Assembly: GCF_030384885.1 (NCBI RefSeq)
Contig: NZ_CP128613.1
DNA: 64,000 nt
Source: Escherichia coli
GTDB lineage: Bacteria; Pseudomonadota; Gammaproteobacteria; Enterobacterales; Enterobacteriaceae
Direction: 5' to 3' (one strand)
Of this stretch, positions 1 to 23,244 are shown piece after piece. The position numbers were made by a program, and so were the translations under genes. The notes under the pieces are model-generated. The model searched no databases and was not told the DNA's origin. It saw nothing but the letters and a program-made list of their open reading frames with translations. The first letter of the stretch is position 1; each line of letters begins with the position of its first letter.

Positions 1-1010
1 TCTGCTCCTAATCCTTGCCATGCCTGAAAACGTTTAACGGCTTCTACCAATTCATTATTGTAGGCGGCACGAACGGCAGGCGCAGGTTTACTACGAGACG
101 TCGTTTGCTGGTCCATCGCCTTAGTTTCTGCTGTTTCAGCAGTAACAGCGGATGGGCTGACCACCGCGTCAGTTGGCGTGTCATCGCCAGGCAGAGTTAT
201 TTTCGGCCCCCCGTCCAGCATGCCTGTACGTTGCAATATTTCGCGCAATGCCGGTATGTCGTTACTCCACTGCCCTGGACGCAATGTTGCTTTGCCAGTC
301 AGTTGGGGCCACGGTTTGGTGTCACTGAGTAAGGCCAGTAACGATTCATGCATCGCCGCATATTGCGGATGCTGCGGTGCCAGTCCTGCAACAAACGTCG
401 GCAATTGACCTTTATCCAGCGCCAGCTGCCATTGGTTAATCACCGAAAGCGGCGGCGTTGCAAGCGCATAAGGTTTACTGCTATATAGCCAGCGAGTGCC
501 TTTGACCGGAATATTTGCAATGAAATGGAGATAGCCCATCATCGCATCAGAGAGCACGACGTCGCGTGCCATCCCGTTAACACCAGGATCGGTCAGTAAC
601 TCTACCCATTTATTAAACTGCGGCTGGAAACCGGCAATCGCCACCTCTGCCAGCTGTTGCTGGAAGGCTTTAACAGCATCACGGTTTTCCCACATGGGTT
701 GCATATCGCGTGCGGCATACAACAATTGAAGCTGGTTAAGATAAACCGGCTTATAACCTGCGGGTAATTGAGATTCGATTTGCGTGCGGGCTCTTTCAGC
801 CGCACCTTCAGGCAATGGCTGGATCCCCGCCATTATTGCCGTGGCTTGCGCCTGCGGCAGTGCCTCGCCCTGTTCACTGACAGCCACCGGGCTGTCGCCA
901 GGGATTACTTCAGGCTCATCGGCCTGCGCATTGAACAGTGGAGCGAATGTTACGGCCAGGCACAAACTGATTGCCGACAGCCGACGACCACACATCATAT
1001 TAAGCAACAT
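1..1010 (-). CDS. ldtD: L,D-transpeptidase LdtD (YcbB), N-terminal part only; 3' end lies beyond the window
   Basis: Reverse-complement translation from ATG at 1010 reads [20 protein letters not shown]... (signal-peptide-like) and stays open to the window edge; sits downstream of mukB as in E. coli. Absent from the ORF track because it has no in-window stop. Confidence 0.85.
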
Positions 1011-1246
1011 CCCTTGCCCCCTGTTTTTATCATACTCTGAATAGCCAGGCTGTTATTTTACGACTTGCCTGTACAACGCCAATACTCACGAAAGTATGAC
1101 GAGCAAGCCTGTTACTCATCAGGCTTATCTTCAGTATATAAACGCCGATACGTTTTTACATAACCTAATGTAAAGAAGTTTAAAGAAAAGCGCGCCAGAA
1201 TGTGGCACTTTTTTAGTGCAGAAACGGAGTTTTCAGAAACAGGAAA

Positions 1247-1264
1247 GGCGGCATCGCTGCCGCC
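1247..1264 (-). terminator. Intrinsic terminator downstream of mukB
   Basis: Hairpin ggcggca-tcgc-tgccgcc 7 nt after the mukB stop, followed on the minus strand by a T-rich tract. Confidence 0.6.
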
Positions 1265-1270
1265 TCAATC

Positions 1271-4200
1271 TTAACTCGCCTGGGAAGGCGCTTCGTCAGT
1301 TCCTGGAAGCGTTTCAGGGAGTTGCGGTGCAAAACCACGCAGACCGACTACGTGAACGTGTTCGGTATTCTGGAAGACTTTACGCACCAGTTTATAGGTG
1401 GTGCCTTTTTCCGGGCTGATATTTTCCGGCGCTGCGATGATGAGCTGCATTTGCAAACGCTCACACAATTCAAACAGCGTGGCGATGGAACGGGCGTCCA
1501 GTCGCGCTGCTTCATCGAGGAACAGCAGGCGGCAAGGAGAGATATCTTTACCGCGCAGGCGGCGAGATTCATCTTCCCAGCTTTGTACCACCATCACCAG
1601 AATCGACATACCGGTACCAATCGCCTCACCGGTCGACAGTGCGCCAGACTCCGCGCGCAACCAACCATCGGAACCACGGTTAACCTCAACTTCCATTTCC
1701 AGATAGTTGCGGTAATCCAGCAGTTCTTCACCGATAGTCTGCGGCGTGCGCTGCCCCATATCAATCTGCGGGTTAAGACGTTGATACAGTTTCGCCAGCG
1801 CTTCCGAGAAGGTCAGACGGTTGCTGTTAAACAGATCCTGATGCTGCTCGTGCTGTTCAGAGAGCACATCCAGCAGCATGGCGTGCGTTTCACGTACGTT
1901 CACGTTCAGACGTACGCTGTTCACCTGACCGAACGATACGTTCTGCAAGCCCTGGTTGAGCATACGGATACGATTCTGTTCGCGCTGAATGGTTTTGCGA
2001 ATGATGTTCGCCACGCTGCGGGAACTGATCGCCAGTTTCTGTTCGCGGGACGTTAACTCTTCAGTCAGACGGCTAAGTTCGATCTCCATCTGCTCGATAG
2101 CTTCAACCGGATCATCAGTACGAATAATATCCTGACGAATACGTTCACGCAGATGCTGATAAACCGCCACGAAGAACTGAATTTTACGCTCCGGACGTTT
2201 TGGATCTTCTGACAAACGCAGCACGTCGCGCAGATGTTCATTATCCGCCACCGCCAGACGCAGCGCGCCTAACGCCTTATCCGACATGGAACGCAAATCA
2301 TCAGCGGAGAGATAAGCCAGCTCACGACGGTGTAAGCGGCGCTCAACGCCGTTATCTTTCACCATGCGCATGACTGCACACCAGCCCGCTTTCGCGGTCA
2401 CTACCTGCTCGCGCATCTCAAAGTAATCACGCTCCAGCTTGCGCAGTTTGCGGGTCAGGTTGTCCATCTCCGCTTCGCAGAAGGTAAGCGCTTTTTCCAG
2501 TTGGTTGCGACGTGAACGGTTATTGTTCAGCTGCGCATGTAACTCATCACGGCGAATACGCGCCCGCTCTTCTGCCCCGCTATCAGCACGCACGCCGATA
2601 TCCTGCAATTCACGTTGCAGATCGTTGAGTAGCTCTTTTTTGGTGTCATACGAACTTTTCAGCGAAGCCAGTACCTGATTGTACTGACTTAACTGCGCGG
2701 CGTGTCCGCGCAACGCTTCACGAGCGCGGGTACGCTCCGCTTCCGCCTGTTCCAGACGTTCACGCAGTTTTTCGTTGAGATCGCTGTTACCGCTAAGCAT
2801 TTCTGCCGAGTCAGAGTAGCTAAAGTGCGCACGACGCTGCACCACTTCCGTCAGGGCAAACGCCTGCTGACGGGCATCGCGCTGCATCTGCTGAGAGTAC
2901 GCGTAATCTTCTTTTAGCTGTTCGAACTGTTCCGGGTCACTCTGCAATACCGAAACGATCGGTTCCAGTTTCGCCAGTTGATTACCGAACTGCTGAACAA
3001 AACGCGCGGCTTCCTGGGCTTCATCCAGACGTTCGCGGATTTCATCGACGCGATCCGCCAGGCTGTCATCAGCCAACAAGTTGAGACGCGGCAGAATGCG
3101 GTTCAGCGCCGTAACACCCTCTTTCGCCTGCTCAAACTGAATACGCTGCTGCTGGTTATCATTTTCATGATTACTCAACGCCCGCTCCAGTTCGACGCGA
3201 CGGCTGTTCAGTTGACGGATTTCGGCTTCCGGATCAGACTCAAACGCCACCGCCAGATGGCTGCCGATAAAGCGGCTGAACGCCTGATGCAGACGCTGGG
3301 TTTTCTGTACATCAAAGGAGAGCGTGGCGAAGCGTTCGGAAAGCACTTCACGCTCGGCATGGAGGCTTTCGATACGGCTTTCGCGCGCCGCGCGTCCAAA
3401 CAGCGGCACTTCCGGGAAACGTGAATAACGCCACTGACGATCGGCGATTTTCACCACTACCGCTTTTTCCAGCTCATCAACGCTGAACACGCTGTCATCG
3501 AATGACTGCGGATCCCCTTCGATCAAATAGAGATCTTCCGGGCAATCGGTCAAGCCTTCCAGGTGTTCGGTTACCTGTGACAGATCTGGCACCACGATGG
3601 CGTGGCGTGACGGGCCATACAGCGCTGAGAAGTACGGCGCATCTTCCAGGCTAACGTCGTCATAAATTTCTGACAGCAGCACGCCGCCAAAACGCTCCGC
3701 CAGCGCATTCAAACGCTGGTCTTCAGAACCACCTGGCTGGCTTAAACGTTCGATCTCTTCATCGACGGCGTTTTTGCGCGCGCCTACTTCATCGCGTTCA
3801 ACAATGGCTTCGCGCTCACGCTCCAGCAACTGTTGCAGATATTCGGTGACATCCTGGCTGGAAGAGAACTCTTCGCCGCACTGTTCGCTCAACTGGTTGA
3901 GGCTGTTTTGCGCTGCCAGCCAAACCGGCGCACGCTGCATCAAACTCTGAATGCGAGACTGCAGCTGTTCCTGCTCCTGACGCAGTGCCATGCGCTCTTC
4001 ACGGGCGTTAGAAACACTGTCGGAAAGAGAGGCAATGCGCGCTTCCAGCTCCTGATGCAGGGCTTCCAGCTCGTCGATATCAAAATTCTTGCCCTGACGT
4101 TTGCAGAAATCTGCCAACAGACGCTCAGCTTCTTGCTGCTCGCGCAGACGCTGTTCCAGTTCGCTTAAGCGCATCCGCAACGGCTGAACCTGCTCTGCCA

Positions 4201-10458: not shown

Positions 10459-11384
<926 letters not shown>

Positions 11385-11435
11385 AGTTCCTCCAGATGGA
11401 TCGGGTTATGAATGCATAAATCTTATCATAATCAT

Positions 11436-12668
11436 TTATGCGACGGGGTCTATTTCCCAGCCGGCGCGGCAATCAGTAAAGAGGCCTTGCGGGCAGCGTC
11501 CTAATGTCACCCGCGTTGCCTGCTGCCAGTTAGCGAAATCAGTAATCGCCTGACGTAACCCTTTTTGCAGCGTTGTCGTTGGTTTAATGCCTTCCTGTAA
11601 CCACAGAGAGATAACTTCAAGGATGCCTGTCTGGCGATGCATTTTGGCATCCATTCGCCCAACTAATTGCCCACGATGTAATAACGGCAGAACAAAATAG
11701 CCATACTGGCGTTTCGGCGCTGGGGTATAGCACTCCAGCCGGTAGCTAAAATCAAAAAGCTGCTCCGCGCGTTTGCGATCCCAGACAACAGGATCAAAAG
11801 GCGAAAGTACCGCGCTGTGCGTTGCAGTGAGCTTTCCGGCGAGCGCGCGTTCGAGTAGCGGCAGCAAATCAGCATGCAGCCAAAGATTGCCCAATTTTTC
11901 AACATGCACAGCAATGATTTGCTGCTGTTCAGCCCTCGCTTCGCGCCAAGCCGCCAGTGCCGGACGTTTCAGCCGATAGTAATCTGCCAGCCACTGTTCG
12001 CGGAATATGCCCAGGCTACGCGCACTGTTATCCAGCATGATGATTTCTGCTTCTGTTTGCGAAACGAGATCGCGCTCATCATCCCAGTCAGGCATGACAC
12101 GGTGGGTTAAATCATAAACGCGCTGGAAGTTGCGCCGTTCAATCACCATCACCTTTCCGGCAGTAAATAAACCTTCCAGATGCCGTTTATGCGGCTTCCA
12201 TTCCCACCAGCCGCTTGCACCTTTACGAGAATGCTCGAAATCGGCTGAACGTACCGGCCCCTTATCATGAATATGTTGAATTAACTGTGCAATTTCTGCC
12301 GCATGTTCCTGCATCCAGGCGTCTTTGTATTTCCAGCCCATTTTTTCAGGTGCCAGCATGCGGTGGCGAATAAGACGAAAATCGCTACGTGGCATAAAGC
12401 AGGCTTCATGCGCCCAGTATTCCATTAATTCGCCACGCGCCAGAGACTCATCCAACCACTGCGCAGGATAATTTCCCAGACGACTGAAAAGCACCAGATA
12501 TGGGCTACGGGCAACAATATTGATGGTATCAATTTGCAGCAAGGACATGCGGGAAATCGTTGCCAGAATATCTTCCAACGACGCTCGACGGCGGGGTTTG
12601 TTTAACAGGCCTTGCGCAGCAAGGTGAAGATTACGCGCATCAGCAAGGGAGAGGTGCGGCAGCGACAT
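11436..12668 (-). CDS. ycaQ: Winged-helix DNA glycosylase-like protein YcaQ (interstrand crosslink repair family)
   Basis: 410-aa ORF; synteny upstream of ycaR-kdsB. Confidence 0.88.
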   Translation of the reverse strand: MSLPHLSLADARNLHLAAQGLLNKPRRRASLEDILATISRMSLLQIDTINIVARSPYLVLFSRLGNYPAQWLDESLARGELMEYWAHEACFMPRSDFRLIRHRMLAPEKMGWKYKDAWMQEHAAEIAQLIQHIHDKGPVRSADFEHSRKGASGWWEWKPHKRHLEGLFTAGKVMVIERRNFQRVYDLTHRVMPDWDDERDLVSQTEAEIIMLDNSARSLGIFREQWLADYYRLKRPALAAWREARAEQQQIIAVHVEKLGNLWLHADLLPLLERALAGKLTATHSAVLSPFDPVVWDRKRAEQLFDFSYRLECYTPAPKRQYGYFVLPLLHRGQLVGRMDAKMHRQTGILEVISLWLQEGIKPTTTLQKGLRQAITDFANWQQATRVTLGRCPQGLFTDCRAGWEIDPVA

Positions 12669-12704
12669 TCATGACTCCATCAATCGAACGCTGCCGCGGC
12701 GTAA

Positions 12705-13691
12705 CTAGTTGCCAGAAGCCAGCGAGGTTAGTTGCGCAAGCAGTTTCGCTGGTTCATCGCCTGAAAGCTGTGCGTCAACAGGCAAATACCACCAATTTTC
12801 ATCTGCAAAGGCCCGGCATTTCACCGCATCTTTTTCAGTCATTACTAGCGTTTGCCCGTCGCTTACCAACGCGCTGACATCCTTATAATTCAAAGACTGA
12901 TGATCGGCCAGTGGTACACATTTTTCCGGTTGTACGCCGCACATCTTCAGCGTGGCAAAAAAGCGAGGCGGATGCCCAATCCCCGCCATCGCCACCACAT
13001 GTTCAAGTTGAGCAACGTCACAACGCGTACCGGTACGTAAATTCACCGCCTGCCCCGGCAGCAGATGCATGGGGATTTCACCGCTGCGGGGGACACCGCC
13101 GTTGACGATTACCGCATCAACCGACTTTAAGCGCCCCGCTCGCTCACGCATTGGCCCCGCCGGCAACCACCAGCCATTGCCAAAGCGACGCACGCCATCA
13201 ATAACGACGATTTCCACATCACGCGCCAGACGATAATGCTGTAAACCGTCGTCGGTTACGATGATCTGCACATCAGGGTGTTGCGCCAGAATGGCTTTTA
13301 CCGCATCAGAACGCACGGGAGAAACCGCAACAGGCGCACCAGTGCGTTGATAAATCAACACAGGTTCATCACCCGCCTGTGCTGTGGTGGTATCTGCCGA
13401 CAATAACAGCGGATAAGATTCAGCCTTACCACCATATCCCCGCGATACGACCCCCACGTGAATACCGCGCTGTTGCAGCTGTTCCACCAGCCAGACAACG
13501 ACCGGGGTTTTTCCATTGCCGCCAGCGGTGAGATTACCAACCACGACAACCGGTACGGGGGCACGCCAGGCGCGCTTCAGTTTTAGTTTATAGCAAAGAC
13601 GGATCGCGCCACTCACCAGACCATACAACCAGGAGAGTGGCAGCAATAGCCGCCACAAAGGGGATTCACCAGACCAGATTTTTTCGATCAT
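12705..13691 (-). CDS. lpxK: Tetraacyldisaccharide 4'-kinase LpxK
   Basis: 328-aa ORF; P-loop [11 protein letters not shown]; ATGA overlap with the msbA stop. Confidence 0.95.
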
Positions 13692-15436
13692 TGGCCAAAC
13701 TGCATTTTGTGAAGTTGCGCGTAAACGCCACGGTGCTCAAGCAAATCGTTATGCGTACCGCGTTCCACAATGACACCATCCTCGACGACCACGATTTCGT
13801 CTGCCTTTTCAATAGTAGACAAACGGTGGGCAATCACCAGAGAGGTACGGTTTTTCTGCAACTCATCCAGTGCCGCCTGAATCGCACGTTCAGATTCGGT
13901 ATCCAGCGCCGAGGTAGCTTCGTCCAGAATCAGAATCGGGCTATCACGCAACAAGGCTCGAGCGATGGCAATACGCTGACGCTGACCGCCAGAGAGCAGC
14001 ACGCCGTTTTCACCAATCACTGTATCGAGACCGTTATCCATCTTATTGATGAAGTCCATGGCGTAGGCCATACGCGCCGCTTCTTCAATTTGCTCACGGC
14101 TGTACTGTTCTGTCCGTGCGTAAGCAATGTTGTTGGCAACCGTATCGTTAAACAGATGGACATTCTGCGACACCAGAGCAACCTGGTTACGTAAAGACGC
14201 CAGGGTATACTCGCGCAGATCGTGACCATCCATCAGGATTTCGCCTTCATCAATATCGTAAAAACGTGTGATTAGGCTGGCGATGGTTGATTTACCTGAA
14301 CCAGAGCGTCCAACCAGAGCGACCGTTTTTCCTGCCGGAATTTTCAGGTTGATGTTACGCAATGCGGGTACATCACGTCCCGGATAAGTAAAGGTGACAT
14401 TGCGGAATTCTACGTCACCAGTCGCACGTTCGAGCACACGCTTACCTTCGTCTTTCTCCTGCTCACTGTCCAGAATGGTAAACAGCGTCTGACAAGCCGC
14501 CATACCGCGCTGGAATTGGGCGTTAACGTTGGTCAGCGACTTCAGCGGACGCATCAGCGCAATCATTGAAGAGAAAACAACGGTAATCGTACCGGCAGTC
14601 AGGCTATCCATGACGCTAGGGAAGCTCGCCGCATACAGAACAAACGCCAGCGCTAAAGAGGCGATCAACTGAATGATCGGATCAGAGATAGAAGAGGCTG
14701 AAACCATTTTCATCCCCTGAAGACGCATTCGGTTACTGACTTTGTCGAAGCGTTTGGTCTCCACCTCCTGACCACCAAAAATCAATACTTCTTTGTGGCC
14801 CTTCAGCATCTGTTCTGCGCTGGTGGTCACCTGACCCATGGTGTTCTGCATGTTTTTACTGATGTTGCGAAAACGCTTCGATACGACACGAATCGCAATC
14901 GAAACAATCGGTGCCAGCACAATTAAAATGATCGACAGTTGCCAGCTGTAATAGAACATCATGATGAACAGGCCGATGATCGACGCACCTTCACGCACAA
15001 CAGTAATCAATGCGCCAGAAGAAGAAGAAGCAACCTGTTCGGAATCGTAGGTGATACGTGACAACAGCGTACCCGTTGACTGTTTGTCAAAGAATGAAAC
15101 TGGCATTCCCATCATGTGACCAAACAGGCGGCGACGCATGGTCATTACCACCTTTCCTGATACCCAGGAGATACAGTAGCTGGAGACATAGCTGGTGATA
15201 CCACGTAAAATCATCAGCCCGATCACCACCAGCGGCATCCACACCAGCACGGAGCGATCTGTTTTACCAAAGCCATCATCAAGAAGTGGCTTAAGGAGCG
15301 ATAACATGAAGGTATCGCTGGCTGCGTTGAGGATTAACGCTACGCCCGCCACGATCAGACCCGCTTTAAAAGGCGCAATGGTTGGCCACAGTCGGCGGAA
15401 CGTCTGCCACGTAGAGAGATCTTTGTCGTTATGCAT
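13688..15436 (-). CDS. msbA: Lipid A/LPS flippase MsbA (ABC exporter)
   Basis: 582-aa ORF; N-terminal TM domain plus ABC ATPase (Walker [10 protein letters not shown], signature LSGGQRQR). Confidence 0.97.
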
Positions 15437-15472
15437 TCAAAAAACCAGCATTTGTTGAAATAGCCGCATATT

Positions 15473-17737
15473 CTACCCGTTATCCACTGGCACGCCAAAC
15501 CACTGATGATACCAACGAGGTAAAATTTGCTCTCTGAGGCTGCTAATCCGCCAGCCTTGCGCTGAAAAATTGACCGTTATTTGACCCTGATGTGGAGTAT
15601 CAAGCCACTTATAACCCTGTTGTTGATAGCGATGTTTAACTTTGCTTGAGGGCAGTCGCCATGCGTTATAGCGCGATGCCGATGCGAGTGCCACTTTTCC
15701 ATTCACTCGCTGAATTAATGGCAACGATGATGAGGTATTACTGCCATGGTGAGGTACCTGAAGTAATATTGCTTGTACTTGCTGCCAGTAACGGCTTAGC
15801 ATCTTTTGTTCAGCGGGGGCTTCAATATCACCGGTTAGAAGAATGCTATTCGTCCCGTCATCAATCTTAACCACACAGGAATGGTTATTTCCTTTATCGT
15901 TGCTACCTTGTAAAGGCCAGTGCGCGCTGAAACGCAATCCTTGCCATTGCCACGCTTCGCCACGCACACAGGGCTGATGATGTTCCCAGTTTAACGGACT
16001 TCGGATCCATAACATCGGCCATGTGTGCAATATTGAGTCCAGCCCTCCCCGGTGATCCAGATGTTCATGACTCAAAATAACGCCTTCCGGTTCAAGATTA
16101 TGCCAGTGGAGCCAGGGGATAATCAGTTGTTGCCCACTATCCCCATCGGGCCAGGCCAGTCCCGTGTCATAGAGAATCGCTTTGCCGTTTCGCGCAATGA
16201 CCATTGCCAGCCCTTGCCCGACATCAAGCATGTACACTTGCCACTCGTCAGGTCGAGGTTTTTGCCACAGCGGCAAGCACATCAGCAAGCCTACAGCCAC
16301 ACACATTGCTGGCAACGTTCGCCAGGCGTTTAATCGCCATACCACCAGTAAGAACCATGGGGAAAATGTTAGCCATTGCCAACGTTCAGCAATGTTGATC
16401 CACCCTTCCGGCAAACTCTTTAACCCCCAGAAAAGTAAAGCCAAAGACCGGTCGGCAAGAAACCATACTCCTTGTTCCACGATTAACGGCCCGCTTAAAT
16501 GCACAACCATCGCGGCGAGAATCAACGGAACCGTGATAAATGTCACCAGGGGAATTGCAAATAGGTTTGCAATAAACGAGGTCAGACTAATGCCATGAAA
16601 TATGACGATTTGCACAGGCATTAGCAGGAGCGTGATTCCAAGTTGTAGATGGATGAGGGAAACAACCGCGCGCAATACCGGCGGCAGCTGCCACTCCGGA
16701 CAGGGAAACCACTGATACCAAAAAATCAGTGCCGCGACCGCAGCGGCAGAGAGCCATAAACTTTGCGAGAGAATGGCAACAGGATCCATCAGCAAAATTG
16801 CCGCCAGACAACATATCCATACATCCCAGCCACTCCATTGTCGTCCACTTAACTTAAGCATTCCCCAAATGGCAAGCGCCACCACGGTACGCAATGCAGG
16901 AGGTTGCATTCCCGTTAGCCAGGCATAAAAAGCAGCACAGCAGATTCCACCAATTAATGGCATTTGCCAGTGGATCCAGCACCCAGGCAGAAAAACTTGC
17001 CCACCGCGAATGAGTCCTGCAGCCAGCAACGCCGCAAAAGCGATGTGCAATCCTGATATCGCCATTAAATGCGCCGTTCCAGTATCACGCATGATATTTT
17101 TGATTTCTTTGGGGACGGATAACCGTTCCCCCATACCTAATCCAAGAATAACCGCGTTCCACATATAGGGTTGCAGCGTTGTTTGTAGTGACGCCAGATA
17201 CTGTGCACGCAGGCTACAATTCGGTTCAATGACACTTGCCTGCAGAAAACGGCCGGTGAGCGGTTGATGCTGGGCAATGGCATAACGCTGGCTATCAAAG
17301 CCGCCATCATTAAGTTGGCCATGAACTGCACGAACTTTGAGTTTCATTGACCATACTTGTCCGGCACAAACCGCTTGCGGAAGATATTCGCCATACAGTA
17401 CGAGGCCTGGCGCAGGGAATATACGTCGACCTTGTAGATGAGTAATTTGACCGTAATGAGTGGTCATGCCGTCAGTAGCAATGATCTCAACAATTGCATC
17501 CTGCGTCGAGCCAGTTAAGGTTTCTCCTGCCCACAAAATTTGCTTTGCTGCTAATATGCCCCAAACGAAAAACAGCAACGTCAGCGCGATATAACGGACG
17601 GCTTTAACACGAATAAATGCCAGTACGCAGGCGAAGACAGTCAGAAACGCAAGGGTTAATGTCCCAGGCAATTGGGGCAAAACCAGCAACGGAAAAATTC
17701 CGCAAATTATGCATACGCCGACTGTCGTTATTTTCAT
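15473..17737 (-). CDS. ycaI: ComEC/Rec2-family DNA internalisation channel homologue YcaI
   Basis: Track ORF 780 aa; start taken at ATG 17737 (MKITTVGVCIICGIF..., 754 aa) with GGGAGG upstream; polytopic membrane domain plus C-terminal metallo-beta-lactamase-like region (HEHLDH). Confidence 0.9.
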   Translation of the reverse strand: MKITTVGVCIICGIFPLLVLPQLPGTLTLAFLTVFACVLAFIRVKAVRYIALTLLFFVWGILAAKQILWAGETLTGSTQDAIVEIIATDGMTTHYGQITHLQGRRIFPAPGLVLYGEYLPQAVCAGQVWSMKLKVRAVHGQLNDGGFDSQRYAIAQHQPLTGRFLQASVIEPNCSLRAQYLASLQTTLQPYMWNAVILGLGMGERLSVPKEIKNIMRDTGTAHLMAISGLHIAFAALLAAGLIRGGQVFLPGCWIHWQMPLIGGICCAAFYAWLTGMQPPALRTVVALAIWGMLKLSGRQWSGWDVWICCLAAILLMDPVAILSQSLWLSAAAVAALIFWYQWFPCPEWQLPPVLRAVVSLIHLQLGITLLLMPVQIVIFHGISLTSFIANLFAIPLVTFITVPLILAAMVVHLSGPLIVEQGVWFLADRSLALLFWGLKSLPEGWINIAERWQWLTFSPWFLLVVWRLNAWRTLPAMCVAVGLLMCLPLWQKPRPDEWQVYMLDVGQGLAMVIARNGKAILYDTGLAWPDGDSGQQLIIPWLHWHNLEPEGVILSHEHLDHRGGLDSILHTWPMLWIRSPLNWEHHQPCVRGEAWQWQGLRFSAHWPLQGSNDKGNNHSCVVKIDDGTNSILLTGDIEAPAEQKMLSRYWQQVQAILLQVPHHGSNTSSSLPLIQRVNGKVALASASRYNAWRLPSSKVKHRYQQQGYKWLDTPHQGQITVNFSAQGWRISSLREQILPRWYHQWFGVPVDNG

Positions 17738-17892
17738 GCACCCCTCCCTGTTTATGGAAAGTGTGCAACTTTGTTGAGCGGTTGTCTGGTGGGAGTTTTG
17801 CGTTCCCCGAGGCACGTTCAGAAGAATTTAACGAGAGGGTGAAAACTGTTCAAAACTCTGCGAGGCAGCTTCCAGTTCCAGATTAGAGAAAT

Positions 17893-17919
17893 GAAAAAAG
17901 CACCCGACAGGTGCTTTTC
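17893..17919 (-). terminator. Intrinsic terminator downstream of ihfB
   Basis: Hairpin gcacc-cgaca-ggtgc flanked by A6 on the plus strand (T6 on the minus strand), 25 nt after the ihfB stop. Confidence 0.7.
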
Positions 17920-17943
17920 TCGCGTTCAAGTTTGAGTAAAAAC

Positions 17944-18228
17944 TTAACCGTAAATATTGGCGCGATCGCGCAGTTCTTTACCTGGTTTAAAGTGAGGAAC
18001 GTATTTTCCTTCCAGTTCTACTTTATCGCCAGTCTTCGGATTACGTCCGGTACGTGGTGCGCGGTAGTGCAAAGAGAAACTGCCGAAACCGCGGATTTCA
18101 ATACGCTCGCCCTGCGCAAGAGTCGAGGCCATATGCTCCAGCATCTCTTTTACTGCATCTTCAACCGTCTTGGCGGGAATGTGCGATTGCTGGGTGGCAA
18201 GTCTTTCTATCAATTCTGACTTGGTCAT
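17944..18228 (-). CDS. ihfB: Integration host factor beta subunit
   Basis: 94-aa [23 protein letters not shown]...; GGAGG upstream. Confidence 0.97.
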
Positions 18229-18339
18229 GATTCCTCCGGTTCCTTAAAGGCAAATTTAGCGGCTGCTGTTGCTGCATTGATTAAGGGCGGCCGTAGCCGC
18301 CCTTAGTGCTTGATTACAGGACGAAACCTGCAATCTGTC

Positions 18340-18377
18340 AAGTAAACTCAACAAACTTCGGAATAAAAATCCCGAAG
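18340..18377 (-). terminator. Intrinsic terminator downstream of rpsA
   Basis: Hairpin cttcgg...ccgaag 11 nt after the rpsA stop, followed on the minus strand by a T-rich tract. Confidence 0.6.
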
Positions 18378-18387
18378 AGTCAGAGAA

Positions 18388-20061
18388 TTACTCGCCTTTA
18401 GCTGCTTTGAAAGCTTCAGCCATTGCGTTGTTGGAGAAGTTTGCATCTTCCTGTTTGTTAACAGTTGCGATTGCATCTTTCTCGTCAGCTTCGTCTTTCG
18501 CACGAACAGACAGGCTGATTGCGCGGTTTTTACGATCAACGCCGGTGAATTTAGCTTCAACTTCGTCGCCAACGCTCAGAACCAAGGTAGCGTCTTCAAC
18601 GCGGTCACGGGATGCTTCAGAAGCACGCAGGTAACCTTCAACGCCGTCAGCCAGTTCTACGGTTGCGCCTTTAGCGTCAACTGCAGTTACTTTACCGGTT
18701 ACGATAGCGCCTTTCTTGTTCAGAGCAACCCAGTTGTTGAACGGATCTTCTGCGAGCTGTTTAACGCCCAGGGAGATACGTTCACGTTCTGCGTCAACCT
18801 GCAGAACAACTGCAGCGATTTCGTCGCCTTTTTTGTATTCACGAACTGCTTCTTCGCCTGCAACGTTCCAGGAGATGTCAGACAGGTGAACCAGGCCGTC
18901 GATGCCGCCGTCCAGGCCGATGAAGATACCGAAGTCAGTGATAGACTTGATTTTACCTTCAACACGGTCACCCTTGTTGTGGGTTTCCGCGAACTGCTGC
19001 CACGGGTTAGCTTTGCACTGTTTCAGACCCAGGGAGATACGACGACGTTCTTCGTCGATATCCAGAACCATAACTTCCACGACATCGCCAACGTTAACAA
19101 CTTTGGACGGGTGGATGTTTTTGTTGGTCCAATCCATTTCGGAAACGTGTACCAGGCCTTCAACGCCTTCTTCGATTTCAACGAAGCAGCCGTAGTCGGT
19201 CAGGTTGGTCACGCGACCAGTCAGTTTGGTACCTTCCGGATAACGTTTAGCGATAGCTACCCACGGATCTTCGCCCAGCTGTTTCAGGCCCAGGGATACA
19301 CGGGTACGTTCGCGGTCGAACTTCAGCACTTTAACAGTGATTTCGTCGCCCACGTTGACGATTTCGCTTGGATGCTTAACGCGTTTCCAGGCCATATCAG
19401 TGATGTGCAGCAGGCCGTCAACGCCGCCCAGATCAACGAATGCACCGTAGTCAGTGAGGTTCTTAACGATACCTTTAACTTCCATGCCTTCCTGCAGGTT
19501 TTCCAGCAGCTGATCGCGCTCTGCGCTGTTTTCGGATTCGATAACGGCACGACGAGAAACAACAACGTTGTTGCGCTTCTGATCCAGCTTGATTACTTTG
19601 AATTCAAGCTCTTTGCCTTCCAGGTGCAGAGTGTCACGCACCGGACGAACGTCTACCAGAGAACCTGGCAGGAACGCACGAATACCGTTCAGCTCAACAG
19701 TGAAGCCGCCCTTAACTTTGCCGTTGATAACACCGGTAACAGTTTCAGCATCTTCGTAAGCTTTTTCCAGCGTGATCCAGGCTTCGTGACGTTTAGCTTT
19801 CTCACGGGACAGCAGAGTTTCACCGAAGCCGTCTTCTACTGCGTCCAGAGCAACGTCAACTTCGTCACCTACCTGGATTTCCAGCTCGCCCTGGGCGTTT
19901 TTGAACTGCTCAGCCGGGATGGCGGACTCAGATTTCAGACCAGCGTCAACCAGTACTACGTCTTTGTCGATAGCAACAACAACGCCACGAACGATAGAAC
20001 CCGGGCGGGTTTCGATTTCTTTTAAGGACTCTTCAAAGAGTTGAGCAAAAGATTCAGTCAT
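18388..20061 (-). CDS. rpsA: 30S ribosomal protein S1
   Basis: 557-aa ORF with repeated S1 domains; strong codon bias, which leaves long stop-free antisense frames. Confidence 0.98.
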
Positions 20062-20171
20062 GTTTAATCTTCAGGTTTATATTTAACGTCCACCTGGCTC
20101 CATGCCGGATGGGGTTGTTTAACATACCCGCTGTCATTCCATTGCAACGGGGGTACTGCAAATTCGGTCGC

Positions 20172-20855
20172 TTATGCGAGAGCCAATTTCTGGCGCGCGT
20201 ATTGTAGCGCTTTTTCAATCACTTGCTCAATGCTTAAGGTGGTGGAATCCAACACTAAAGCATCGGCTGCCGGAACCAGTGGCGCTACCGCTCGGTTACG
20301 ATCGCGGTCGTCGCGTTCTTTGATCTCGGCCAAAAGGCGCTCAAAGTTAACACTAAAGCCCTTCTCCTGCAACTGTAGCATGCGGCGATGCGCACGTTCT
20401 TCCGAGGAGGCGTCAAGGAAAATTTTCACTGGCGCATCAGGGAATACCACCGTTCCCATATCGCGGCCATCGGCAATCAAGCCTGGTAATTCGCGAAACG
20501 CGCGTTGGCGACGCAATAATGCTTCACGAACGCGTGGGAATGCCGCGACTTGTGAAGCAGCATTCGCCACTTCCTGAGTACGAATTTCGCCGCTGACATC
20601 TTCCCCTTCGAGGATCACTTCCAGATTGCCATTGGTCGACACAAAACGGACATCCAGATGGGATGCCAGCGGCACGAGCGCATCTTCCGATGCAACATCA
20701 ACATGGTGATGTAATGCCGCCAGTGCCAGTACGCGATAAATTGCACCCGAGTCCAGCAGATGCCATTGCAACGCTTCCGCCATAGCCTTACACAAGGTGC
20801 CTTTCCCTGCACCGCTTGGGCCATCAATGGTAATAACCGGGGCAATTGCCGTCAT
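20172..20855 (-). CDS. cmk: Cytidylate kinase
   Basis: 227-aa ORF; P-loop GPSGAGKGT. Confidence 0.96.
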
Positions 20856-21027
20856 CTTTATCTCCTTAAAACAGGCGTACCGTTAACATAACCGCGCGCA
20901 TTATACGCGCCGACGCCACAAATCGTTAACGTTGTGTGCAAAAACCAGTTTTGTCTGTATTCAGATGGGGATTTATTGCGCAATTATAGCGGGCTGGCAG
21001 AAGACCAGCCCGAAAGATGACAATGAT

Positions 21028-21792
21028 TTACTTACCAGAGGCGATACGATCACGGATGTGTTGCGCACGCTCTGTTGATGGTGGGTGAGAGTCAAACATG
21101 GACTGGGTACGGCCGCCATCCAGGCTGGCCAATTTTTCAAAGCTGCCAACCAGCCCCTGGGTGCTGATGCCACGTTTCTTCAACAGATCAAAGGAGAAAT
21201 CATCTGCTTCGGACTCTTTATCGCGGGAGTATTTAGCATTGATCGCGCCTTCTGCGATATCACCTAATTGTGAGCGAGAAAGCTGGGAAGCCACACCGCT
21301 GGTAGCGGAAATCGCATCACGTGCGGCAACGATCGCATAAGAAGCTTTCATTTCAGCCAGCGAGTGACCCAACGCGACGTGGCCCAGTTCATGACCCAGA
21401 ACGCCTTCAATTTCGTTGTCGTTCATCATGTCCATCAGGCCACTATAGACACGAACACAGCCGTTCGCCATCGCCCATGCGTTGACGTCGCTGGTCATAT
21501 AAACCTTATAGTTGACCGGCGTGCCATTAATATTGTTACCCAATGCTTTGGCGATTTTTGCCAGACGTTTACCGTACTTGCTGGATTTACTTGCGACTTG
21601 ATTGCCGCTGTCCATTTCGGCACAGCCCTGATTGGCAATCGCTTTTGCATCAGCATCGCTTAACGTTGCTGCTTTATAGGCATTTAAACCTGAGCTGATA
21701 GCCATATTGGTATCAATACCGTGGGTATTCTGACACCCTGTCAGTAAAGCTGCAGAGGCCGCAATCGCCAGCAGTAATTTAGTATTCTTCAT
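21028..21792 (-). CDS. ycaL: M48-family metalloprotease lipoprotein YcaL
   Basis: Track ORF 262 aa; start taken at ATG 21792 (MKNTKLLLAIAASAALLTGC, lipobox); HELGH zinc motif. Confidence 0.88.
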   Translation of the reverse strand: MKNTKLLLAIAASAALLTGCQNTHGIDTNMAISSGLNAYKAATLSDADAKAIANQGCAEMDSGNQVASKSSKYGKRLAKIAKALGNNINGTPVNYKVYMTSDVNAWAMANGCVRVYSGLMDMMNDNEIEGVLGHELGHVALGHSLAEMKASYAIVAARDAISATSGVASQLSRSQLGDIAEGAINAKYSRDKESEADDFSFDLLKKRGISTQGLVGSFEKLASLDGGRTQSMFDSHPPSTERAQHIRDRIASGK

Positions 21793-21898
21793 GTGAATCA
21801 TCCGTTGATTAATCATATATAAATATTATGTATCAATAACTTACATTGACAAACGACGCTACCATTAATCAAAATGACTCACAAGGTCCGAAAAAAAA

Positions 21899-21925
21899 CG
21901 CCGGCAATGTGCCGACGTTTTGATA
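21899..21925 (-). terminator. Intrinsic terminator downstream of aroA
   Basis: Hairpin cgccggca-atg-tgccgacg flanked by A8 on the plus strand (T8 on the minus strand), about 35 nt after the aroA stop. Confidence 0.7.
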
Positions 21926-21960
21926 AAGAAAGATTTGGCTATTTATTGCACGTTGTTCAT

Positions 21961-23244
21961 TCAGGCTGCCTGGCTAATCCGCGCCAGCTGCTCGAAATAA
22001 TCCGGAAATGTTTTGGCCGTGCATTTGGGATCAAGAATCGTCACTGGTGTATCTGACAACGCCACCAGCGAGAAACACATCGCCATCCGGTGATCATTGT
22101 ATGTTGCGATCTCGGCAAAGTTCAGTTTTTCCGGTGGAGTGATACGAATGTAATCGTGCCCCTCTTCTACTTCCGCACCAACTTTACGCAGTTCTGTTGC
22201 CATCGCAAACAGGCGATCGGTCTCTTTAACACGCCAGTTATAGATATTGCGCAGCGTGGTGGTGCCTTTTGCAAATAACGCCGCCGTGGCAATGGTCATC
22301 GCCGCATCAGGAATATGGTTCATATCCATATCAATAGCGTTCAGTTCACCCCGCGTGCAGGAAATATAATCATCGCCCCAGCAAATGGTCGCGCCCATTT
22401 TTTCCAGCACATCAGCAAAGCGAATATCACCCTGCATACTGTTGCGTCCAATGCCGGTCACTTTTACAGTGCCGCCTTTGATTGCTGCTGCTGCCAGGAA
22501 GTAAGAAGCCGAAGATGCATCGCCTTCGACCAAATAAGTACCCGGAGACTGATAAGACTGCCCGCCTTTTACGACAAATTGTTGATAGTGCTGATTTTCA
22601 ATTTCAACACCAAACGTCTTCATCAGATTGAGTGTGATGTCGATATAAGGTTTAGAGACCAGATCGCCTTTAATACGAATCACCGTATCTTCCGGCGCAA
22701 GAGGCGCAGTCATTAACAGTGCGGTGAGAAACTGACTGGAAACGGAGCCATCAACGTCAACGTTGCCGCCAGTAAAGCCGCCCTGTAAACGCAATGGTGG
22801 ATAATTTTCTTGTTCCAGGTAAGTGATCTTCGCCCCACCCAGGCGCAGCGCATCCACCAGATGACCAATGGGGCGTTCTTTCATACGCGGTTCACCGGTC
22901 AGCACAATATCATTGCTACCCAGACAAAGAGCTGCCGCCAGCGGACGCATTGCCGTTCCGGCGTTACCGAGGAACAACTCCAGGGCACTTTTTGCGTGTA
23001 ATGGACCGCCGTTACCGATGATTTCGCAACGCGTACGATCGGCTGAAAGCGTATAGCTTACCCCTAACGCTGTTAATGCATTCAGCATATGGCGCACGTC
23101 ATCGCTATCCAGCAGATTGGTTAATACTGTTTTGCCGTGTGCTAATGCCGCCAGCAATAAAGCGCGGTTAGAAACGCTCTTGGAACCGGGCAGATTAATG
23201 GTGCCATCGACACGAGCGATGGGTTGTAACGTCAGGGATTCCAT
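21961..23244 (-). CDS. aroA: 3-phosphoshikimate 1-carboxyvinyltransferase (EPSP synthase)
   Basis: 427-aa [26 protein letters not shown]... Confidence 0.97.

Follow-up and report, generated by a model that had tools for sequence, protein, structure and literature searches.

An intact ComEC/Rec2-family gene, ycaI, upstream of msbA-lpxK in Escherichia coli

Why "non-competent" enterobacteria retain a full DNA-uptake gene set is a standing question, and the ycaI gene of Escherichia coli raises it directly. We analysed this gene in a window of 64,000 nucleotides from contig NZ_CP128613.1 (the whole stretch of DNA under study), in which the coding sequence occupies positions 15473..17737 of the minus strand; all features described below lie on that strand too. 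The frame was checked over its whole length: it runs from an ATG at 17737 to a TAG stop at 15473-15475 and comprises 754 sense codons with no internal stop or frameshift, in agreement with the first-pass annotation, which had reported a full-length open reading frame of 754 amino acids. A mechanically called frame of 780 amino acids starting with GTG at 17815 was rejected in favor of the ATG at 17737, because the latter is preceded by a Shine-Dalgarno sequence GGGAGGGG (17748..17741), agrees with RefSeq and is conserved in Escherichia and Citrobacter orthologues. The encoded protein scored 1308.3 bits against the NCBIfam equivalog NF008580 (cut-off 969), which is far above chance, 1088.9 bits against TIGR00361 (cut-off 190) and 179.5 bits against PF03772 (cut-off 23), and RefSeq lists "ycaI: ComEC family protein" at identical coordinates in the nearest genome. 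The open reading frame is E. coli ycaI, an orthologue of ComEC/Rec2.

The same locus is known from E. coli K-12 (b0913; WP_000705764.1, "ComEC family protein"), where YcaI has the same 754 amino acids, the same neighbors (ihfB upstream, msbA-lpxK-ycaQ downstream) and the same motifs. The two genes share 95.7% nucleotide identity and their products differ by 35 amino-acid substitutions, which amounts to intraspecific allelic variation. The allele of the window is closest to those of B2-type strains such as S88 (98.6%), and its protein is identical to UniRef A0A1Q6B5Z5. The gene is thus already catalogued, and its recognition here is correct but ordinary.

A polytopic membrane domain followed by a C-terminal metallo-beta-lactamase-like (MBL) domain with the motif HEHLDH had been described from the letters of the sequence, and Pfam, hydropathy and the AlphaFold2 model bear this out. 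[quoted passage not shown] The model and the alignment to Rec2/ComEC chains delimit an OB-like beta domain in residues 75-172 (17222..17515, the DUF4131 region), predicted with high pLDDT as five strands and one helix. The DUF4131 profile matched residues 23-157 with 26.4-29.5 bits, just under its cut-off of 31.6, and close orthologues scored 20-31 bits; the OB-like stretch alone aligned with the equivalent region of the Rec2/ComEC chains 9vc9 and 9vcb with E-values of 7e-10 and 1e-8, respectively. N143 of its LNDGGFD motif is invariant. An N-terminal OB fold is therefore probably present between transmembrane helix 3 and the channel domain.

Past the OB-like region, a polytopic helical domain is evident from hydropathy and from the AlphaFold2 model, and the Competence (channel) domain was assigned to residues 201-467 (16337..17137; Pfam PF03772, E 1e-52). 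The helical bundle of the channel is predicted with pLDDT above 90. Its AISGLH motif (I227, G229, H231) is family-invariant, and in an alignment of 117 family sequences the residues H223, I227, S228, G229, H231, Y271, R283, N391 and P404, which cover HLxAISGLH and other channel positions, are invariant or nearly so; all of them are present in the protein of the window.

The C-terminal nuclease domain comprises residues 497-747 (15497..16249), with D505, H557, H559, D561, H562, D637, H663 and S666 as metal and catalytic residues, and Lactamase_B (PF00753) matched residues 505-686 with an E-value of 2e-23. As modeled, this domain has the ComEC fold, and the residues of its binuclear metal site are intact. 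H557, D561, H562, D637, H663 and S666 are invariant in 117 of 117 family representatives and correspond to H598, D602, H603, D700, H725 and S728 of Moorella glycerini ComEC. These six residues of M. glycerini ComEC were targeted by mutagenesis, and most of the metal-site mutants were virtually inactive. All the ComEC nuclease active-site residues that were tested are kept in YcaI, save for a D-to-H swap at the one position where mutation was tolerated. The swap lies in motif 2 (HEHLDH, residues 557-562; 16052..16069), whose third position is D600 in Firmicute ComEC and H559 in YcaI; across the family representatives residue 559 is D in 91 of 117 and H in the remaining 26.

Among proteins of known structure, the gammaproteobacterial Rec2/ComEC chains (PDB 9vc9, 9vcb, 9vcf) are alignable with YcaI over residues 77-747 (E ~1e-76, ~35-40% identity) and share with it the order of OB, channel and MBL domains as well as a conserved C-terminal WY motif, whereas YcaI is shorter by 45-80 residues, mainly at the N-terminus. 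Their motif 2 reads H-x-A-x-A-H in the deposited chains, presumably as a result of engineering, compared to the family consensus H-x-D-x-D-H and to H-E-H-L-D-H in YcaI. Firmicute ComEC (from Neomoorella/Moorella, with the nuclease domain 9ic4 and a full-length cryo-EM structure of 2026, and from B. subtilis) is more distant, with 26-28% identity in the nuclease domain. A Mn-dependent endo- and 5'-exonuclease activity and a role in transformation have been demonstrated for the Firmicute proteins, whereas both are putative in YcaI.

The gene is kept throughout the species. It is annotated between ihfB and msbA in 5425 of 5426 complete E. coli genomes, and 5423 of the 5425 carry at least 80% of it in one piece; the exact intact protein of the window occurs on 521 other contigs, and of 16 mid-ranking E. 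coli alleles sampled, 15 are intact. In other Escherichia species and Citrobacter, no ycaI frame at the 15 orthologous loci has an internal stop: 13 encode the full 754 amino acids, and two run off the edge of the retrieved stretch. All 15 loci have msbA-lpxK downstream, and all 11 with enough flank have ihfB upstream. Most matches in other Enterobacteriaceae also have 754 amino acids. Fifteen allele pairs gave a dN/dS of 0.16, which indicates purifying selection, while both dN (0.015) and dN/dS were the highest among the ten neighborhood genes compared. Purifying selection on ycaI is real but comparatively weak, the weakest among these neighbors. The claim of the first-pass annotation that ycaI is an intact ComEC/Rec2 homologue therefore holds: family models, annotation in 5425 genomes, fold, catalytic residues, synteny and selection all agree.

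Pseudogenisation in close relatives had been named as evidence that would count against this reading, and in the literal sense it does occur. The nearest genome, strain 2013C-4282, differs from the window by 6 SNPs over 64 kb, and its codon 278 (16904..16906), which is CAA for glutamine in the window, is TAA, for which reason its ycaI is annotated as a pseudogene. The base found in the window is the one common to all other alleles, so that the Q278 stop either arose as a derived change private to that strain or reflects an assembly error; since, in addition, the intact protein is present on those 521 contigs, the reading of ycaI as intact stands. Natural knock-outs other than this stop comprise an IS1 insertion, a phage-associated truncation and in-frame deletions. 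An apparent clustering of SNPs in ycaI relative to 2013C-4282 (2 of 6 in 3.5% of the window, binomial P ~0.02) was set aside, as it involves too few events and may reflect assembly errors in that genome. Two clusters that looked like widespread truncated alleles, P0043 (611 aa, 1934 members) and P0044 (528 aa, 514 members), were rejected as artefacts, because their representatives trace back to an error-ridden long-read assembly that breaks up the essential msbA and lpxK as well, and to the end of a contig.

The first-pass annotation had placed ycaI right after an essential string msbA-lpxK-ycaQ-ycaR-kdsB, which has to be corrected in two respects. The genes are encoded on the minus strand, and ycaI consequently lies upstream of msbA as the first gene of the row; within the string, only msbA, lpxK and kdsB are known to be essential. 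Its downstream operon partners are annotated at 13688..15436 (msbA), 12705..13691 (lpxK) and 11436..12668 (ycaQ). A spacer of 36 nt with no terminator-like site within it separates ycaI from msbA, msbA and lpxK overlap by 4 nt, and terminator-like matches inside ycaI occur at chance level (6 found, 4.4 expected). The question of co-transcription with msbA is largely answered by the literature, which regards ycaI-msbA-lpxK-ycaQ as an operon and includes qRT-PCR data on polarity (PMC10328246, PMC3001078, PMC4421995). Being on the same strand, closely spaced, terminator-free and backed by these reports, the four genes qualify as an operon.

Upstream of ycaI, an intrinsic terminator of ihfB with a 13-bp stem and a T-run (17893..17921) is conserved from Escherichia to Citrobacter. 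This strong terminator insulates ycaI from the highly expressed rpsA-ihfB; in Salmonella it was reported to be effective, and downstream ycaI transcripts were measurable (PMC8942017). Whether ycaI has its own promoter in 17738..17943 had been posed as a question. A sigma-70 scan of this region found no match of at least 9/12; weak promoter-like blocks are conserved there. A phylogenetic footprint over 17 sequences outlined the proximal region 17741..17789, which includes the Shine-Dalgarno sequence, with the invariant blocks CCAGACA (17789..17783) and TGCACAC (17767..17761); these might represent a weak sigma-70 promoter, with CAGACA and CACACT spaced by 17 nt. Further upstream lies a CRP-like element, TGGAA-N6-TCGCA (17859..17874), with one perfect CRP-S half-site (TCGCA) and partial conservation in Citrobacter as TGGAA-N6-TC(C/T)CA. 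The CRP-S pattern of the gammaproteobacterial Sxy/CRP-S competence regulon, TGCGA-N6-TCGCA, with up to 2 mismatches matched 39 times across the whole window compared to 45 expected, and since such matches occur at chance frequency the element is a lead only.

The other end of the gene carries a stronger signal. A sigma-70-like sequence, TTGGCG-17-TAGAAT (15470..15498), is located in the last codons of ycaI and is the sole promoter-like match that the scan returned in 15200..18400; its -10 hexamer TAGAAT contains the TAG stop codon of ycaI, and it is a candidate internal promoter for msbA-lpxK. Compared to Citrobacter, the ycaI-msbA junction is 93-95% identical and the body of ycaI ~70%. Third-codon-position identity in the last 21 codons reaches 0.79, compared to 0.43 elsewhere, and is the highest of 735 windows. 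Judging by this conservation, the 3' end of ycaI most likely harbors an extra promoter for msbA. The junction as a whole is almost invariant.

Taken together, it is very probable that YcaI is an intact and maintained inner-membrane ComEC/Rec2 protein with OB, channel and MBL nuclease domains, that ycaI heads the operon and that msbA has its own promoter. The protein would then combine a periplasmic OB-like DNA-binding domain, a helical channel and a periplasmic MBL nuclease with a binuclear metal site. By analogy with characterised ComEC proteins, we infer that YcaI transports DNA in E. coli: incoming double-stranded DNA would be held at the mouth of the channel by the OB domain, the MBL nuclease would digest one strand starting at the 5' end, and the other strand would reach the cytoplasm through the channel. 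The expected setting is a weakly expressed, Sxy-inducible competence machinery with DNA uptake at a very low level. At the level of transcription, ycaI is the first gene of ycaI-msbA-lpxK-ycaQ, positioned behind the strong ihfB terminator with only weak promoter-like elements, and the essential msbA is most likely served by a conserved promoter of its own embedded in the 3' end of ycaI.

Experimental reports touch this scheme at several points. Sxy-induced, hofQ-dependent DNA uptake has been described in E. coli (PMC3330819); the uptake work of Sinha and Redfield tested hofQ and not ycaI, and "Natural DNA uptake by E. coli" makes no mention of ycaI or rec2. Artificial transformation was reduced in DH5alpha carrying a nonsense mutation in ycaI (PMC12844161), while spontaneous plasmid transformation was unaffected by inactivation of ycaI according to Sun et al. 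2009, as cited in PMC6135910. Deletions of ycaI showed no phenotype and serve as neutral linkage markers (PMC3890546, PMC8151780).

One could argue that ycaI is a decaying relic, a former competence gene without function in E. coli that is open in this strain only incidentally. The lack of a reported growth phenotype after deletion or insertion fits this reading, as do the sporadic natural disruptions, the nearest genome included, the position of ycaI as the least constrained of the neighborhood genes compared (35 amino-acid differences from K-12 versus 0-8 in neighbors) and the absence of detectable transformation in E. coli unless artificial help is given. However, a dN/dS of 0.16 is far below neutrality, the length of 754 amino acids is kept in most matches across genera whose proteins are only 60-73% identical, the catalytic and channel-motif residues are all invariant, and neither the species-wide count of genes in one piece nor the sampled alleles look like decay. 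Decay is thus already disfavoured and appears highly improbable.

It is also improbable, although less starkly so, that YcaI is functional in something other than transformation, either importing or degrading periplasmic DNA as a source of nutrients or nucleotides, or acting in the envelope in connection with msbA and lpxK. Purifying selection in a lineage without detectable natural transformation would be accounted for in this way, and in related bacteria competence regulation answers nucleotide starvation, DNA being discussed as a nutrient (PMC3739930). Synteny with the lipid A genes at each of the 15 orthologous loci, a D-to-H change in the metal site that is specific to the clade, and the slightly lower stationary-phase OD and altered permeability-assay behavior of a ycaI mutant (PMC12844161) point in the same direction. 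Against this, YcaI has the domain architecture and the catalytic residues of a standard ComEC, with no hint of another substrate in the sequence, promoter sharing alone can explain the operon linkage, and the permeability effects are small and stem from one study. A more specific proposal, which we regard as rather unlikely, is that enterobacterial YcaI has been kept as a constitutive low-level periplasmic nuclease for DNA salvage and import, its clade-specific HxHxDH site (D in 91 of 117) shifting metal or substrate preference, while ycaI also carries a conserved promoter and 5' leader of msbA. If true, the last codons and the stop of ycaI would be under a dual coding and regulatory constraint.

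As a discovery ycaI matters little: nearly every E. coli genome carries its annotation, mutants of it have been made several times, and papers on competence discuss it. What our analysis adds to the reading of YcaI as a maintained ComEC/Rec2 protein is that its gene is under real, comparatively weak purifying selection, with the nuclease active site intact and occasional natural knock-outs tolerated. There is also a practical side: because of the conserved putative promoter at the junction, deletion or recoding of ycaI should spare its last ~50 nt, as msbA may otherwise be disturbed. The gene often serves as a "neutral" marker site, and UAG-reassignment strains carry a recoded version of it.

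Our analysis confirms that ycaI (minus strand, 15473..17737) encodes a ComEC/Rec2 homologue; the finding of the first-pass annotation is real and was interpreted correctly, and it was already known. The 754-aa product, YcaI, far exceeds the cut-offs of the NCBIfam equivalogs NF008580 (1308 bits vs 969) and TIGR00361 ComEC_Rec2 (1089 bits vs 190) and contains the Pfam domains Competence (residues 201-467, E 1e-52) and Lactamase_B (residues 505-686, E 2e-23), while the OB-like region DUF4131 matched residues 23-157 below threshold (26.4 bits, cut-off 31.6). The family is very large, with 43,380 representative clusters at an E value of 1e-3 or less. The window DNA is E. coli chromosome, and megablast found the ycaI region in 5425 of 5426 complete E. 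coli genomes, every matching genome annotating it as ycaI, 'ComEC family protein', flanked by ihfB and msbA; the exact protein sequence occurs on 521 public contigs (UniRef A0A1Q6B5Z5). The full-length frame described earlier is accurate in its details: it runs from ATG at 17737 to TAG at 15475-15473 through 754 sense codons with no internal stop, and the metallo-beta-lactamase (MBL) motif 2, HEHLDH, lies at residues 557-562 (16052..16069). A mechanical ORF list takes the frame upstream to GTG at 17815. The true start is ATG at 17737, because a Shine-Dalgarno sequence, GGGAGGGG, stands just 5' of it, RefSeq annotates the same coordinates in the nearest complete genome, 2013C-4282 (NZ_CP027579.1), and the start is conserved among Escherichia and Citrobacter orthologues. 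Our additions are modest: a quantified selection profile, experimentally defined catalytic residues mapped on YcaI with a clade-specific D-to-H change, the recognition of the nearest relative's pseudogene as a private event or an assembly error, and a conserved ycaI-msbA junction inferred to bear a promoter.

Across six intact alleles spanning the species (window, K-12, S88, SX48, 504211 and O157:H7) ycaI has a mean dN of 0.015, a mean dS of 0.094 and a dN/dS of 0.16, compared with 0.14 for lpxK, 0.10 for ycaQ, 0.05 for kdsB, 0.04 for aroA, 0.01 for msbA and 0 for ihfB, rpsA, cmk and ycaR. These rates indicate that ycaI is under purifying selection, yet is the fastest-evolving protein among its neighbours, and it differs from K-12 by 35 amino-acid substitutions, against 0-8 in the neighbouring genes. 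Within the gene, dN/dS falls from 0.28 in the N-terminal/OB part, where constraint is weakest, through 0.15 in the MBL to 0.12 in the channel. At 95.7% nucleotide identity to K-12, ycaI is also, within E. coli, the most divergent gene of this neighbourhood (flanking genes 10459..23244); msbA has a similar dS but a single amino-acid change. Beyond the species, 15 orthologous loci with 72-95% protein identity were recovered from other Escherichia species, cryptic clades and Citrobacter. Their ycaI frames are all free of internal stops; 13 encode the full 754 aa and the remaining 2 run off the fetched stretch, and all 15 carry HEH(L/M)DH. They likewise all have msbA-lpxK downstream, with ihfB upstream in 11/11 with enough flank. 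A wider protein search recovered orthologues with 59-64% identity, 754 aa long apart from a few of 749-753 aa, in Klebsiella, Enterobacter, Kosakonia, Lelliottia and others.

The AlphaFold2 model of YcaI, built on a family alignment of 117 ComEC/Rec2 representatives (mean pLDDT 94.8, pTM 0.92), consists of three N-terminal helices (residues 3-18, 26-40 and 45-74), a beta domain of five strands and one helix (78-171), a long helical membrane domain (about 176-491) and an alpha-beta/beta-alpha C-terminal domain (499-747). YcaI retains every residue found invariant in that alignment: N143 in the OB-like domain; I227, G229, H231, Y271, R283, N391 and P404 in the channel; and D505, G507, G509, D524, H557, D561, H562, C590, N617, S620, C621, D637, H663, G665 and S666 in the MBL. 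The residues mutagenised in M. glycerini ComEC were placed on YcaI through a HMMER alignment to the nuclease-domain structure 9ic4: H598, D602, H603, D700, H725 and S728 correspond to the identical H557, D561, H562, D637, H663 and S666, and the sole difference is D600, which is H559 in YcaI. D600 was the sole metal-site position at which alanine cost just ~5-fold activity (PMC12455585). Characterised ComEC nucleases have HxDxDH at motif 2, whereas YcaI and its close relatives have HEHLDH. Since histidine at this position (codon 559, 16061..16063; 26/117 representatives) is concentrated in YcaI's closest relatives and aspartate is found in 91/117, the alignment indicates that motif 2 of the enterobacterial clade has the canonical MBL form HxHxDH, not the ComEC-typical one, owing to a D-to-H change of a metal ligand that is specific to this clade. 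An altered metal preference is a possible consequence.

The first-pass annotation held that pseudogenisation in close relatives would speak against its reading. Such a case does exist in the nearest genome, since codon 278 of 2013C-4282 is TAA for CAA (Q278 stop, annotated 'internal stop'). A second, synonymous difference lies at codon 541, and at both codons the window base is that of all five other alleles compared; therefore the stop is either a private, derived change or an error of assembly. The two genomes differ at 6 of 64,000 positions: 16115 and 16906 (ycaI), 35539 (ycaD), 40508 and 40520 (dmsA, 12 nt apart) and 62375 (macA). These may be true mutations or assembly errors in 2013C-4282, whose record gives dmsA and macA strain-specific protein accessions. 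Elsewhere, strain ET979 has IS1 within the first 45 or so ycaI codons, and in strain 90-3040 (locus record L004, 5962..7185) the gene ends after ~1185 nt next to phage-like genes, a breakpoint from prophage insertion or rearrangement. Those genes are a Com-family regulator, a DNA cytosine methyltransferase and tail fibre genes, and a second ycaI fragment lies at another place in the record. Rare in-frame deletions remove 26, 39, 92, 143 and 210 residues (NCBI protein alleles P0002, P0009, P0016, P0021 and P0042). The ends of P0016 and P0021 coincide with short W-Q repeats (among them WIHWQ/EWQ and ERWQW/AWQWQ), a pattern suggestive of slippage or short-repeat recombination. Two large clusters of short YcaI proteins, considered as truncated alleles, proved to be assembly artefacts. 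At least 80% of ycaI is in one piece in 5423 of 5425 genomes, and 15 of 16 alleles sampled at even steps down the match ranking are intact.

It is known that ComEC is needed for transformation, that one DNA strand crosses the membrane while the MBL degrades the other from its 5' end, and that the OB fold provides DNA affinity (PMC12455585; preprint 10.64898/2026.04.23.720307). E. coli carries competence-gene orthologues including rec2, with CRP-S sites predicted at such orthologues in Enterobacteriaceae (PMC1635313), and when sxy expression is forced, E. coli takes up DNA at a low level, in a manner that depends on hofQ and is seen only with lambda Red (PMC3330819). One recent study found chemical and ultrasound transformation lowered in a ycaI nonsense mutant (PMC12844161). 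The best explanation is that YcaI is a functional ComEC-type importer of single-stranded DNA and nuclease, used rarely or at a low level. As cited in PMC6135910, ycaI is dispensable for spontaneous plasmid transformation (Sun et al. 2009), in which double-stranded DNA is apparently imported by a different route. An alternative is that YcaI is maintained for a role outside transformation, in salvage or linked to the envelope. Least likely is that ycaI is a relic. Deletions of ycaI have no obvious phenotype (PMC3890546), and the disruption pattern is that of a dispensable gene, yet one maintained by selection.

The gene had been placed right after the msbA string, but transcription of the minus strand runs rpsA, ihfB, ycaI, msbA, lpxK, ycaQ, ycaR, kdsB, so ycaI lies upstream of msbA. 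The ycaI-msbA-lpxK-ycaQ genes are regarded as an operon, with polar CRISPRi effects by qRT-PCR (PMC10328246, PMC3001078, PMC4421995). A promoter-like TTGGCG-17-TAGAAT (15498..15470, minus strand), the sole such site in 15200..18400, overlaps the last ycaI codons, and its -10 hexamer opens with the TAG stop codon as bases 1-3. Escherichia and Citrobacter share 93-95% identity across the junction but about 70% across the ycaI body, and third-codon-position identity is 0.79 in the last 21 codons vs 0.43 elsewhere, the top of 735 windows. The junction probably holds an internal promoter and leader of the essential msbA, which, if so, would account for the tolerance of nonsense, IS and cassette insertions in ycaI, upstream of that gene. 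The near-invariant DNA spans 15425..15520 (minus strand), that is, the ycaI 3' end and the 36-nt spacer before msbA, and its conservation extends to synonymous positions in the last 21 codons.

Upstream of ycaI, ihfB ends in a strong intrinsic terminator (17921..17893, minus strand; 13-bp stem and T-run) conserved into Citrobacter, and a sigma-70 scan from there to the ycaI start found no promoter at 9/12 or better. Phylogenetic footprinting revealed the invariant minus-strand blocks CCAGACA (17789..17783) and TGCACAC (17767..17761), which could together make up a weak promoter, CAGACA-17 nt-CACACT. It also revealed the partly conserved TGGAA-N6-TCGCA (17874..17859, minus strand) with one perfect CRP-S half-site; this putative CRP-S-like element is only a lead, because similar matches arise at chance frequency. 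Elsewhere in the window, the sole Rfam match is the enterobacterial sRNA STnc130 (RF02084; 41189..41323, plus strand), intergenic between dmsA and serS, at 139.5 bits (gathering score 55).
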